From IMG/VR virus record IMGVR_UViG_2663763286_000005, positions 1 through 21,732 of that record: 21,732 nt of DNA, one strand, 5' to 3'. Shown one piece after another: positions 2,280 through 21,732 of this stretch. Each line of letters starts with the position of its first letter. Position 1 is the first letter of the stretch. Position numbers and translations under genes: made by a program. The DNA is from a virus (Duplodnaviria > Heunggongvirae > Uroviricota > Caudoviricetes). Under the pieces are notes generated by a model. The model made no database searches. It was not told where the DNA came from and saw only the letters and a program-made list of their open reading frames with translations.

Positions 2280-2739
2280 TCAACGTAAGGCGTTCCTCGA
2301 TATGCTGGCGTGGTCAGAGGGAACTGATAATGGACGTCAGAAAACCAGAAATCATGGTTATGACGTCATTGTAGGCGGAGAGCTATTCAATGATTACTCC
2401 GATCACCCTCGCAAACTTGTCACGCTAAACCCAAAACTCAAATCAACAGCAGCCGGACGTTACCAGCTTCTTTCCCGTTGGTGGGATGCCTATCGTAAGC
2501 AGCTTGGCCTGAAAGACTTCTCTCCGAAAAGCCAGGACGCTGTGGCATTGCAACAGATTAAAGAGCGTGGCGCTTTACCGATGATTGACCGCGGTGATAT
2601 TCGTCAGGCAATCGACCGTTGCAGCAATATCTGGGCTTCACTGCCGGGGGCTGGTTATGGTCAGTTCGAGCATAAGGCTGACAACCTGATTGCAAAATTC
2701 AAAGAAGCAGGCGGAACGGTCAGAGAGATTGAGGTATGA
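2263..2739 (+). CDS. R: endolysin R (lytic transglycosylase)
   Basis: 158 aa, near-identical from memory to lambda R ([26 protein letters not shown]...). Start lies inside the 3' end of S as in lambda. Confidence 0.95.
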
Positions 2740-3173
2740 GCAGAGTAACCGCGATTATCTCCGCTCTGGTTATCTGCATCATCGTCTGCCTGTCGTGGAC
2801 GGTCAATCATTACCGTGATAACGCCATCGCCTATAAAGAGCAGCGCGATAAGGCCACATCCACAATCGCTGACATGCAGAAGCGTCAACGTGATGTAGCT
2901 GAACTCGATGCCAGATATACAAAGGAGCTTGCTGATGCTAACGCGACTATCGAAAGTCTCCGTGGTGATGTTTCTGCTGGTCGTAAGCGCCTGCAAGTCG
3001 CCGCCACCTGTGCAAAGTCAACGCCCGGAGCCAGCGGCATGGGCGATGGAGAAAGCCCAGGACTTACAGCAGATGCTGAACTCAATTATTACCGTCTCCG
3101 AAGTGGAATCGGCAAGATAACCGCGCAGGTTAACTACCTGCAGGAGTACATCAGGACGCAATGCCTTCGATGA
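2736..3173 (+). CDS. Rz: i-spanin Rz
   Basis: 145 aa with an N-terminal transmembrane segment and coiled-coil region, similar to lambda Rz. ATGA overlap with R. Confidence 0.9.
2935..3120 (+). CDS. Rz1: o-spanin Rz1 lipoprotein, embedded in Rz in the +1 frame
   Basis: AAGGAG at 2922-2927 sits 7 nt before ATG 2935. Signal peptide with lipobox VVSAC, then a Pro-rich mature part ([13 protein letters not shown]). The ORF opens at 2908 but 2935 has the proper ribosome-binding site. Confidence 0.8.
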
Positions 3174-3347
3174 TAGCGATAATTTTACTCATCATCCTTC
3201 ACATCTGGCTCTGTAGACAGGGTGGTGATCACTTCTGGAGTAAATCCAGATTAAACATCTCATTGCTGATGCTTGATATTGAGCATCTTGCGCGCGGTAA
3301 GGGGCTGCGTTGAGATAAGAGCCAGTCATTACAAATACCAGGATTTA

Positions 3348-3373
3348 GCCTCGCATTCGCGGGGCTTTTTATT
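3348..3373 (+). terminator. intrinsic terminator downstream of the lysis cassette
   Basis: Stem gcctcgc/gcggggc with loop attc, followed by ctttttatt. Confidence 0.5.
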
Positions 3374-3391
3374 GCAACAAAGGTAAAGACG

Positions 3392-3679
3392 ATGGATGAA
3401 GAATATCGTAAAGACCTGCAACTGTGGTTTGGTCTTACGCATGCGCCGTTCTGCGTGATGCCGCGAGTATTCATGGAGGCTATGCCGCCAGAATGGCAAG
3501 AGAAGATGGCTCAGTTGCTTTTTGAGTATAGCGACACAATCAAAACGGATGTCTGCGGAGTTCACAGCTGTTTTGTTACTGCCAAAGACGGCAACAACCG
3601 CTTTATGAGGATGCCAGAAGATATTCTGAACTATCGTCATCCCCGACGTGAATTCATCGAATCAGTTCTGAAGAAGTAG
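3392..3679 (+). CDS. hypothetical Cys/His-containing protein
   Basis: 95-aa ORF with a ribosome-binding site (aaggtaaag) upstream. Contains 3 Cys and several His (FCVMPR, DVCGVHSCF). No family recognised. Confidence 0.55.
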   Translation: MDEEYRKDLQLWFGLTHAPFCVMPRVFMEAMPPEWQEKMAQLLFEYSDTIKTDVCGVHSCFVTAKDGNNRFMRMPEDILNYRHPRREFIESVLKK

Positions 3680-3965
3680 CCATTACAAAGCCTATCTACG
3701 GGTGGGCTTGATAATGAAACCAGAGTTTATTCTTGGCAACCAGTTACGGCAGTACAGCGAAACAACCCAAGCCAGTAAGTGGGGAAATAACACTGGCAGC
3801 CACTGAAAGATGAACCCCCTGCCTTATGGCAAAAAAGATTCTTTGTGGTGGCGGACTGATGGAAAGACATCGGATAGAATAAAACAGTGGCTAGGGTAGC
3901 TCCCGAAAAGCGGAATCGTCACCGCCAGCCACTGAATCTATGACGAACAACTAGACGAGGTTGAT

Positions 3966-18787: not shown

Positions 18788-18811
18788 CGTATGGGAAATT
18801 GGATTCAATCT

Positions 18812-19201
18812 CTAACATTTTCTTTTTACTTTTCCAACAAAAGCTTTGGTTGAATCCATATTTCCATAACCGGAAATGGTTTTTGACATTAAAACTGTTC
18901 CAGTAGGATGTATTACCCATGAGTCGATAACGCGTTGAGTTTCGCCATTCGCGCCGATTCCTATGATGGAGTTTTTAGACAATGCTTTGTAAGCCATGCC
19001 GCCCGCATCTGTCCCAGAATATGTGATGCTGGCATCTTCACCGCTTGTCTTAATGATGAATGTTCCACTAAAACCATCTTCTTCCGGATGGAAATTATTT
19101 CGTTCTGAATAGCTTATTCCGCGCATATCTCCAACGACCCAGCACTCTGCTGTAGCCCCAAAAGATATGAATAAGAACATAGCAGCAAGAAATTGCTTCA
19201 C
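18812..19201 (-). CDS. hypothetical secreted protein (accessory)
   Basis: GTG start at 19199-19201 with AAGGAGG 5 nt upstream on the minus strand. Signal peptide MKQFLAAMFLFISFGATA. Cys near both ends of the mature part. Opposite strand to the virion genes. Confidence 0.6.
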   Translation of the reverse strand: MKQFLAAMFLFISFGATAECWVVGDMRGISYSERNNFHPEEDGFSGTFIIKTSGEDASITYSGTDAGGMAYKALSKNSIIGIGANGETQRVIDSWVIHPTGTVLMSKTISGYGNMDSTKAFVGKVKRKC

Positions 19202-19318
19202 ACCAACCTCCTTAGTTTTGAGCAGGATACCATGAAAAAAGTAAACATCTTTTGCCTACTTCACATTTGAATGGTTTGTCATTAGGATGTTTCCGGTTTT
19301 TTAAATATGGAAATTGAT

Positions 19319-19738
19319 ATGAAGAGGATTATTGGCGTCGTTGCTGGCGCTATGATGTTATCTGGGTGCGCAACTATTGTTGGTGATGAAACGCAACTTG
19401 TGCAAGTGAACAGCAACCCTTCCGGTGCGAGCTTTAAGGTAAAAGATGAATCAGGCGTGATTGTTGCGCAAGGCAAGACTCCACAAGGAGTAACTCTTGC
19501 CAAGTCAGATGGTAGTTATTTTGGCAAAAAGAGCTACCAGATCACTATGGAAAAGGATGGGTACGAACCAGTTACCCTGCCAATCAAAGCCAATGCCAAT
19601 GGTTGGTATATTGGTGGAAACCTTGTGTTTGGTGGGTTAATTGGTTGGCTTGCTGTTGATCCATTTAATGGTGGGATGTATACACTGAAGCCAAAAGAGG
19701 CAAATGCATCTCTTATACCTTCCACGAAGCAAGATTAA
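19319..19738 (+). CDS. hypothetical lipoprotein (accessory)
   Basis: Signal peptide with lipobox LSGC (MKRIIGVVAGAMMLSGC). Gly/Trp-rich hydrophobic C-terminal segment. An alternative start at 19307 exists. Followed by a strong terminator. Confidence 0.7.
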   Translation: MKRIIGVVAGAMMLSGCATIVGDETQLVQVNSNPSGASFKVKDESGVIVAQGKTPQGVTLAKSDGSYFGKKSYQITMEKDGYEPVTLPIKANANGWYIGGNLVFGGLIGWLAVDPFNGGMYTLKPKEANASLIPSTKQD

Positions 19739-19744
19739 GAAATG

Positions 19745-19769
19745 AAACCCACCGTCAGGTGGGTTTTTT
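19745..19769 (+). terminator. intrinsic terminator
   Basis: aaacccacc-gtca-ggtgggttt followed by a T-run. Confidence 0.7.
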
Positions 19770-19782
19770 ATAAGGAGTAATC

Positions 19783-20040
19783 ATGATTTACCCATCAAAC
19801 AACCCACCAGTTTGCCTGATTGGATACCAGCCTTGCAGTTTTTATGGAATTAATTATGCCATGCTCAAGAGCCTTGTTAGCATCCAAAATGGTCGAGTCT
19901 GCTATCAGGGATGCCCACCTAATATGGGTTCCGATGTCGATATTGAACGTCTCAACGAAGCGATCAAGATCGTTATCGAGGCATTTCCCGTACTCTCTCA
20001 ATCTGGCATGGTCGGCGGCTGGGGTGGCAAAGCCCCATAA
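19783..20040 (+). CDS. hypothetical small Cys-rich protein
   Basis: 85-aa ORF with AAGGAG 6 nt upstream. Four Cys. No family recognised. Confidence 0.5.
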   Translation: MIYPSNNPPVCLIGYQPCSFYGINYAMLKSLVSIQNGRVCYQGCPPNMGSDVDIERLNEAIKIVIEAFPVLSQSGMVGGWGGKAP

Positions 20041-20329
20041 TAGAGGATGTAACAGGAATCTTGATAATGGGTTTGCGAAACGTTCTGAGCCAGCCAGGAA
20101 AACGATATTAGCTATGGATTCAACATTGCTTATGTTGTGAGTTCTAACGGTAACAGGGAGTGACTTAAGAAAGTTATACGCAGTAAAACCAGCGGAGTTT
20201 CCCCTCCCTGACTTGATATATGGATATTTAATTCAGTTGCGCCTTGAGATAATGCGGTGAGACAGTGGTTCTGAAGTTGCCCAACAGTGGCGGTGTTAAC
20301 GGGGCATAAGAAATGAATTGTGTGCAGCA

Positions 20330-20584
20330 TTATTTATCATCCTTGCCATAAATCTTTTTAAGTGTCTCAAACACAACAGTCTTGAACTGCTCTGCCTGCT
20401 GATCAGCCAAGCGTTCAGCTTCGTCGCGATAGCCAGTCACAGGCGATGGTTTTGATAGAGCATCTTGGACGATTTGTAACAACTCGGAGTTCATTGATCT
20501 CCCATTCGCCTCCGCCCTGAATTTTAATTTCTCCCTTACTTCCATAGGCATACGGAAGTTAAAGTGCGGATCATCTCTAGCCAT
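20330..20584 (-). CDS. mnt: Mnt repressor (P22 immI)
   Basis: 84 aa, N-terminal ~55 residues recalled as near-identical to P22 Mnt (ARDDPHFNFRMPMEVREKLKFRAEANGRSMNSELLQIVQDAL...). Divergent from arc. Confidence 0.95.
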   Translation of the reverse strand: MARDDPHFNFRMPMEVREKLKFRAEANGRSMNSELLQIVQDALSKPSPVTGYRDEAERLADQQAEQFKTVVFETLKKIYGKDDK

Positions 20585-20606
20585 GCCATCACTCCAAGTT
20601 AGTGTA

Positions 20607-20635
20607 TTGACATGATAGAAGCACCCTACTATATT
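20607..20635 (+). promoter_or_regulatory. Pant promoter
   Basis: TTGACA at 20607-20612, 17-nt spacer, TATATT at 20630-20635. Matches the P22 Pant layout. Confidence 0.75.
20612..20632 (+). promoter_or_regulatory. Arc operator
   Basis: 21-mer atgatagaagcaccctactat between the -35 and -10 of Pant. One difference from the P22 operator as recalled. Confidence 0.7.
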
Positions 20636-20641
20636 CTCAAT

Positions 20642-20658
20642 AGGTCCACGGTGGACCT
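20642..20658 (+). promoter_or_regulatory. Mnt operator
   Basis: 17-bp palindrome aggtccacggtggacct, matching the P22 Mnt operator. Confidence 0.85.
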
Positions 20659-20674
20659 ATGCTGTGAGGTGAAT

Positions 20675-20836
20675 ATGAAAGGAATGAGCAAAATGCCGCA
20701 GTTCAATTTGCGGTGGCCTAAAGAAGTATTGGATTTGGTCCGCAAGGTGGCGGAAGAGAATGGTCGGTCTGTTAACTCTGAGATTTATCAGAGAGTAATG
20801 GAAAGCTTTAAGAAGGAAGGGCGCATTGGCGCGTAA
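20675..20836 (+). CDS. arc: Arc repressor (P22 immI)
   Basis: 53 aa, matches P22 Arc as recalled ([52 protein letters not shown]). ORF-track start 20612 is upstream of the real start. Confidence 0.95.
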
Positions 20837-20904
20837 AGTTGAAGCCCCAACTGCGGGAACAGTCAGGGCTTCGGTATCAACAAATCGGATTAGGAAATAT
20901 TGAC

Positions 20905-21571
20905 ATGAAAAGTATAGCAAAGGCACAAAACGATTTCACCATCTTCAAATTTGGCGACAGTGAAATTCGCGTCATTAACAAGTGCGGCGAGCCGTGGTTT
21001 GTAGCTAAAGATGTTTGTGATGCTTTAGCTTTGACTAACTCACGCAAGGCGCTTACTGCACTTGATGACGATGAAAAGGGAGTAACTTTAAGTTACACCC
21101 TTGGTGGTGAGCAGAATCTAAGCATTGTGAGCGAATCAGGTATGTATACATTGGTTCTGCGCTGCCGCGATGCAGTCAATAAAGGTTCAGTCCCGCACAA
21201 ATTCCGCAAGTGGGTAACAGCAGAAGTTCTGCCTTCAATTCGCAAACATGGCGAGTATGTAAAAGGAAAGAAAACCACTGTGGAGGAAAGAACACCGCTA
21301 CGCGATGCAGTAAACATGCTGGTAGGAAAGAAAGGACTTCGCTATGATGATGGATACAATATGGTTCATCAGCGTTTTGGTATTGACAGCATTGATGAAC
21401 TTTCAATTGAACAAATCCCGCTGGCCGTAGAGTACATCCACAGGGTAGTGCTTGAAGGCGAGTTTATCGGCAAACAAGAGAAGAAAGCAAACGAGCTTTC
21501 TGCAAAAGAAGCAAACAGCCTTGTATGGCTATGGGATTATGCCAATCGCTCACAGGCATTATTCCGCGAAC
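20905..21571 (+). pseudogene. ant: antirepressor Ant, interrupted by IS insertion after about codon 222
   Basis: Hand-translated: [43 protein letters not shown]... (P22 antirepressor N-terminal motifs). The frame runs into the IS-derived sequence at 21572. Missing from the ORF track because no stop occurs before the window end. Confidence 0.8.
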
Positions 21572-21732
21572 TGAACCGCCCCGGGTTTCCTGGAGAGTAT
21601 TTTATCTGTGAACTCAGGCTGCCAGATCATTATTTCCGATGGAAGCATAATAAGCTTTTTCTGCTTCTGCCGGAGGAATATGGCCCAGCCTTTCCAGCAA
21701 TCGTCGATTGTTATACCAGTCCACCCACGTTA
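21572..21732 (-). mobile_element. IS3-family insertion sequence, IS629/IS1203-like, partial (terminal inverted repeat plus transposase 3' end)
   Basis: Terminus TGAACCGCCCCGGG... starts at 21572. The minus strand encodes ...[38 protein letters not shown]-stop. Recalled as near-identical to the IS629 right end. Confidence 0.8.
21614..21732 (-). CDS. IS3-family transposase OrfB (DDE/rve integrase), C-terminal fragment
   Basis: Minus-strand frame ending at stop 21614-21616 (tca on the + strand). Its 5' end lies beyond the window. Confidence 0.8.

Follow-up and report, generated by a model that had tools for sequence, protein, structure and literature searches.

Near the right end of the window, as we call the whole 21,732-nucleotide stretch of DNA analysed here, lie two divergently transcribed genes, mnt and arc, both of which encode ribbon-helix-helix repressors. 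They are separated by a control region of 90 bp (taken from the open reading frame listing, with positions 19800-21732 read) and are followed, downstream of arc, by a predicted sar antisense RNA locus and by a copy of the antirepressor gene ant that runs into an insertion sequence (Table 1). These are the four elements that make up immI (PMC2629481). In megablast searches of phage records, the region matched P22, epsilon34, and about 50 relatives with 92-93% identity over 563 bp, and a three-way alignment with P22 and epsilon34 ran base for base across window positions 20330-20940. The P22 record (BK000583) and the epsilon34 record both annotate mnt, Pmnt, Pant, the arc operator, the mnt operator, arc, sar, the sar terminator, Psar, and ant, and the annotated positions of sar, Psar, both operators, Pant, and Pmnt are homologous to the corresponding sites in the window. 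Gene order and spacing are also the same as in the immI of P22 (BK000583, X01916).

An earlier note on this DNA, made without database searches, had recognized a complete P22-type immI control region and had proposed aligning it with P22 immI; this alignment (92% identity over 563 bp, with the operators aligning), together with matches to Pfam and Rfam, bears out the reading. Judged by sequence, the regulatory part qualifies as immI: mnt and arc are divergent, Pant and Pmnt overlap, the Arc operator lies between the promoter hexamers, and the Mnt operator sits at the Pant start; the intact ant expected downstream of arc is absent, the effector gene being disrupted. We consider it very likely that positions 20330-20940 are a genuine immI, belonging to a P22-like prophage (Lederbergvirus) of the E. 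coli/Shigella type, and that it works as in P22.

Table 1. Features of the mnt-arc-sar-ant region, in window coordinates
Feature	Position	Strand	Description
mnt	20330..20584	-	Mnt repressor, 84 aa; Pfam Arc domain 4.9e-30, Repressor_Mnt 3.5e-12
Pant	20607..20635	+	-35 TTGACA (20607-20612), 17-bp spacer, -10 TATATT (20630-20635); 11/12 consensus
Pmnt	20612..20640	-	-35 TTGAGA, 17-bp spacer, -10 TATCAT; 10/12 consensus
Arc operator	20612..20632	.	21 bp, ATGATAGAAGCACcCTACTAT, between the Pant hexamers; 20/21 match to annotated P22 O-arc
Mnt operator	20636..20658	.	Core palindrome AGGTCCACGGTGGACCT at 20642-20658, over the Pant start site; homologous to annotated P22 operator
arc	20675..20836	+	Arc repressor, 53 aa; Pfam Arc domain 9.8e-31
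sar RNA gene (predicted)	20837..20904	-	~68 nt; RF00262; two-hairpin fold; homologous to sar misc_RNA of P22 and epsilon34
ant Shine-Dalgarno	20892..20895	+	AGGA, 9 nt before ATG; wholly covered by sar
ant, truncated	20905..21573	+	First 223 of 292 antirepressor codons; frame continues into the IS
Psar	20911..20939	-	In ant codons 3-12; -35 GTGAAA, 17-bp spacer, TGc TATACT; 9/12 consensus plus extended TG
IS3-family element end	21572..21732	-	Terminal TGAACCGCCCCGGG...; transposase C-terminus

Repressors, promoters, and operators

Mnt is 85% identical to P22 Mnt; residues 1-53, which form the DNA-binding ribbon-helix-helix, are identical, whereas the C-terminal coiled-coil region has diverged. 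Arc differs from P22 Arc solely by R16K (52 of 53 residues the same), a substitution that it has in common with epsilon34. Pmnt and Pant overlap face to face, each being homologous to the annotated P22 promoter of mnt and of arc/ant, respectively, and the hexamers of both are identical in P22 and the window. The operators lie where the earlier note had placed them, that of Arc between the -35 and -10 elements of Pant and the palindromic one of Mnt at the start site, and the core palindrome of the latter is identical to that of P22. Two further open reading frames in this interval were rejected as genes: a 74-aa frame at 20612-20836 is only arc extended upstream through the promoter, and an 89-aa minus-strand frame at 20657-20926 is antisense to arc.

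The single mismatch of the Arc operator to P22 is a C in place of T at 20625, operator position 14 (T14C), which on the bottom strand turns the right-hand TAGA box into TAGG. Among the P22-type control regions examined, this base is carried only by the window, by a prophage of E. coli SMN013SH2 (L003), and by Logan contig SRR2103274_179 (L125); a Pant/O-arc/O-mnt block of the P22 type is present in 116 E. coli genomes, just one of which has T14C. As both L125 and SMN013SH2 combine T14C with an intact ant, the substitution must be older than the IS insertion. In structure 1PAR, as described in a secondary source (PMC12645479), Arg13 of Arc makes contact with the TAGA box at its final A. Literature searches yielded no usable quantitative data, either on the T14C mutation, looked for among Arc operator mutants, or on Psar and Pant. 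Affecting a contacted base of the TAGA box, T14C may make Arc control weaker or otherwise altered, and it is the sole unusual detail of the immI in the window.

The genes that flank mnt differ between the two phages: the window has a clpP-like gene (~19795-20330, minus strand) directly downstream of mnt, and P22 has orf59a and sieA as flanking genes. The counterpart of the clpP-like gene in SMN013SH2 is a 537-nt gene for the ATP-dependent Clp protease proteolytic subunit; in the window, a 1-bp deletion at 20195/20196 leaves frames of 66 and 68 aa, and this deletion is real rather than a read error, since L125 has the same one. Between gene 16, coding for an ejection protein, and mnt there are two small accessory frames (18812-19201, minus strand; 19307-19738, plus strand), one with a signal-peptide-like N-terminus (129 aa) and the other with a lipoprotein-like LSGC motif (143 aa), both typical of 'ant moron' cargo.

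The sar locus and its conservation across ant alleles

The Rfam sar model RF00262 matches the minus strand at 20837-20903 with 71.6 bits (E = 2.2e-13; gathering score 43), the match spanning positions 1-68 of the 68 in the model. The RNA predicted from this strand consists of a 5′ stem-loop (20876-20904) with a 7-bp stem and an anti-Shine-Dalgarno UCCU in its loop, followed by a 14-bp terminator hairpin at 20841-20872; the earlier note had seen this second hairpin but ended it one base short, at 20871. As a 70-nt transcript (20904 down to 20835) it has a predicted folding energy of -29.7 kcal/mol (z = -7.3), matched by none of 200 shuffles, and its minimum free energy structure coincides with the centroid structure. 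The architecture is that of P22 sar, which folds into the same two hairpins at -29.5 kcal/mol. The model score, above its threshold, and the P22-like fold support the sar locus that had been predicted; together with the identity to P22 and epsilon34, agreement of this degree is far from anything expected by chance. The arc-ant spacer is 68 nt long, as had been counted, with the arc stop codon ending at 20836 and the ant ATG at 20905; hence the minus-strand stretch 20837-20904 is antisense to the ant ribosome-binding site and stops one base before the ATG. By analogy with P22, this strand would be transcribed in the prophage of the window; in the literature, sar is an antisense RNA of 69 nt that represses Ant (PMC3134472, PMC13397905).

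Compared in detail with P22, the two halves of the RNA behave differently. The terminator stem is identical, with one loop base differing, and the terminator tail, with three U only, is also that of P22, and so is the G immediately preceding the ant ATG at which sar starts. The 5′-terminal 29 nt of the RNA, in contrast, which correspond to the ant leader, differ in sequence: homology to P22 breaks off at ~20876 and returns only for a 16-bp block around the ATG and the Psar -10, the block CATGAAnAGTATAGCAA, with the start codon of ant and the -10 of Psar, being conserved with P22 and epsilon34. The 5′ half is unlike that of P22 because the ant of the window is a different allele, with a Bro-N N-terminal domain in place of the P22_AR_N domain of P22. 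Relative to the RF00262 consensus, loop and stem of hairpin I likewise differ in sequence, but pairing is kept through compensatory changes and both hairpins form.

The minus-strand TATACT (reverse complement of 20911-20916) that had been noticed at the start of ant proved to have a TGn extension and a -35 element, GTGAAA, at 17-bp spacing; this predicted Psar is homologous to the annotated sar promoter of P22. Its -10 with the TG extension is the same in both phages, and the -35 is weak in both (GTGAAA in the window, GTGTTA in P22). Transcription from Pant may stimulate Psar.

The variety of ant alleles in related phages offers a view of how the RNA and its promoter have been maintained. About 120 IMG/VR loci, gathered by means of the terminator arm, provided 35 distinct sar sequences, and 22 distinct variants were aligned; because all loci were retrieved through this arm, helix 2 could not vary among them and is uninformative. 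In stem I, by contrast, pairing on the sar strand extends to 90.9% of cells across the 22 variants, and three of its seven pairs have changed on both sides (A-U, G-C, U-A); the covariation score was reached by 0 of 500 shuffles, with all slid controls far lower. The sar strand can be told from the mRNA strand because G-U pairs turn into A-C mismatches on the opposite strand: pairing of stem I is 67.5% on the ant-mRNA strand versus the above figure for sar, and in 21 of the 22 variants the minus-strand form of the 5′ hairpin is the more stable one. The Psar -10 reads TAnnnT in all 14 ant N-terminal peptide classes, which encode different proteins; 12 of these classes have the TGn extension, and all 14 have TG at positions 2-3 of the -35 at 17-bp spacing. 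Taken together, the covariation of stem I, its strand bias, and the conservation of Psar are evidence that selection acts on both the minus-strand RNA and its promoter, the allele of the window included, and thus give independent, sequence-only support for such selection across unrelated ant alleles.

Relatives of the region and the interruption of ant

The exact 108-nt sar region of the window occurs in 23 sequences of an IMG/VR-derived set, the window included, and a 104-nt stretch covering sar and Psar was recovered from 553 of 5426 complete E. coli genomes (about 10%), in 79 of them with at least 99% identity. The nearest relative is the SMN013SH2 prophage, whose whole region is 99.8% identical to that of the window, down to the rare base in the Arc operator. 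A characterised phage, Kapi1 (Escherichia phage vB_EcoP_Kapi1, MT813197), has a sar and ant module 98% identical over 737 bp; its mnt and arc alleles and its control region, however, are unlike those of the window. That Kapi1 pairs the same sar-ant with other mnt/arc alleles implies that the modules have been reassorted, with the sar terminator hairpin as the constant joint. Unlike the window, Kapi1 and relatives of the SMN013SH2 type have an intact ant of 292 aa. Transcripts of mnt were not detected in a Kapi1 lysogen (PMC12922286), a result which suggests that the rules of P22 may not transfer exactly to its E. coli relatives.

The joint is also visible in other phages. In IMG/VR loci L004-L122, the sar terminator hairpin is invariant and the upstream regions are completely different: other Arc/Mnt specificities occur with other operators, and some loci have a further small ORF separating arc from the hairpin. 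The ant N-terminal domains encoded downstream differ as well. The record of phage CUS-3 labels a 'boundary sequence' at the sar terminator hairpin. As for annotation, sar is missing from the Kapi1 record and from the E. coli RefSeq records examined, although about a tenth of the complete genomes carry this allele. In the Kapi1 record, ant (2503-3447) is given an in-frame start farther upstream, so that the 945-nt gene overlaps arc and covers sar; it is probably too long.

The insertion that the earlier note had held responsible for breaking ant is the end of an IS3-family element located after codon 223 of 292, and L125 shows the corresponding empty site (GCGAACTG/TATCCGG) within an intact ant that is followed by the tailspike gene. 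This contig has 0 mismatches to the window in the 2772 bases of 18800-21571, and ant is intact, with 292 codons, in both L125 and L003; as the otherwise identical L125 has an intact ant, the insertion must be recent. The two thus form a natural before-and-after pair (ant::IS in the window, intact ant in L125) for regulators that lose their cis target. In relatives generally, the tailspike gene follows ant; here it lies beyond the end of the window. The part of the IS inside the window consists of its last 161 bases only, all 161 of which are identical to a 1310-bp copy in E. coli 2010C_5028 annotated as an IS3 family transposase with programmed frameshift. The element, which from its terminal repeat we take to be IS629/IS1203-like, is present in 4090 of the 5426 complete E. 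coli genomes. Matches to intact E. coli prophages end at 21573, and the ant-IS junction itself was found in no complete E. coli genome, the best matches ending at that same position; a scan of genome contigs for the exact junction was likewise negative.

According to Pfam, the truncated Ant keeps the whole Bro-N domain (residues 20-110) and about 110 more residues, and of the P22_AR_C domain it has the first 32 of 73 positions. In the intact protein, residues 122-292 (171 residues) show 81% identity to P22 Ant in its C-terminal half. The ant frame has no stop codon before the end of the window, and, if the IS matches the 1310-bp copy, a chimera of 300 aa with ~77 IS-derived residues is predicted. 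We infer that Ant has become inactive, since it has lost 69 residues of its most conserved part and is left with less than half of P22_AR_C. The truncated ant is therefore probably a dead cis target, its regulators being intact.

The P22 circuit and its possible roles in the window

The mechanism of this switch was worked out in P22, in the studies of Susskind, Sauer, and McClure. If it holds here, Pant would drive both arc and ant; Arc, on its 21-bp operator, would shut off Pant and the opposed, overlapping Pmnt after infection, and Mnt, at the palindrome on the Pant start site, would hold Pant off in the lysogen. Psar, on the minus strand within ant codons 3-12, would give rise to a sar RNA of ~68 nt that traverses the ant ribosome-binding site and terminates at the hairpin close behind the stop codon of arc; sar, with its anti-Shine-Dalgarno in the loop of the 5′ hairpin, would base-pair with the ant leader and so block translation of ant. 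We have taken this scheme over from P22 (PMC2629481, PMC3134472, PMC13397905, PMC12111858), and it is likewise by analogy with P22 that Arc and Mnt would be expected to bind their operators in the prophage and Ant to have lost its function.

The earlier note concluded that, with ant broken, Mnt, Arc, and sar control an inactive gene, unless the N-terminal domain left in the truncated Ant keeps its function. This holds only for the cis target, on the presumption that the truncated Ant is inactive. All three regulators can diffuse, and those of P22 also act on superinfecting genomes. They need not, therefore, be functionless here. Tentatively, and in full awareness that it is a doubtful proposition, we suggest that Mnt, Arc, and sar have been kept as a trans-acting shield that silences the antirepressor of incoming P22-like phages with the same operators or ant leader, and that T14C resets the expression level of Arc and Mnt. 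If so, the lysogen would be shielded against heterologous induction; about 10% of complete E. coli genomes carry that leader allele.

That the locus is instead a decaying relic, with ant dead, immI turning into a pseudogene cluster, Mnt, Arc, and sar unexpressed or irrelevant, and the conservation a mere consequence of how recent the IS is, strikes us as unlikely. Such decay would fit the cut in ant and the 1-bp deletion by which the clpP-like gene beside mnt departs from its SMN013SH2 copy; moreover, with a contig identical over 2772 bases save for the IS, there has been no time for decay, so that intactness is uninformative on selection. The frames of mnt and arc, both operators, and both promoters are nonetheless intact, the reading frames of the late operon upstream appear to be of full length, and diffusible Mnt, Arc, and sar, going by P22, can function in the absence of a cis target.

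It is still less probable that the truncated Ant remains active, its Bro-N domain and linker (223 residues, fused to ~77 from the IS) binding repressor, so that the circuit would go on controlling a working gene. The completeness of Bro-N and the ~110 residues that follow it, the frame open into the IS with its predicted chimera, and the swapping of N-terminal domains against a conserved C-terminal half, a pattern that would fit an N-terminal seat of target specificity, could all accommodate an active protein. The 69 missing residues, however, belong to the very part that is most conserved with P22 Ant, P22_AR_C is reduced as described above, and a foreign tail of 77 residues may destabilise the product. 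A role of the hairpin at 20841-20872 mainly as a recombination 'boundary sequence' or as a plus-strand arc-ant attenuator, and not as a minus-strand terminator, is very improbable: it would explain why the hairpin is invariant while the regulators upstream and the ant alleles downstream differ completely, and the CUS-3 'boundary sequence' is annotated under the match, but P22 and epsilon34 annotate the hairpin as the sar terminator, the adjoining 5′ stem covaries in favour of the minus strand, Psar is conserved, the plus strand has no T-run after the hairpin (for which reason a plus-strand terminator was rejected), and the roles of boundary and terminator are not mutually exclusive.

In sum, the immI of the window is an already known system: a textbook regulatory region that includes a curated Rfam family and whose allele is shared by hundreds of genomes and one characterised phage. 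Both the Arc/Mnt switch and the sar RNA have been standard textbook material from the 1980s onward. Beyond annotation this copy matters little; its only differences from known systems are its allele and its interrupted target gene.

Far from immI, the window has one further match to a structured RNA family, int-alpA (RF02996), at 3884-3946 on the plus strand (42.0 bits; gathering score 35.8). The ORFs on either side would, judging from where they lie, be lysis and terminase genes of the late operon.
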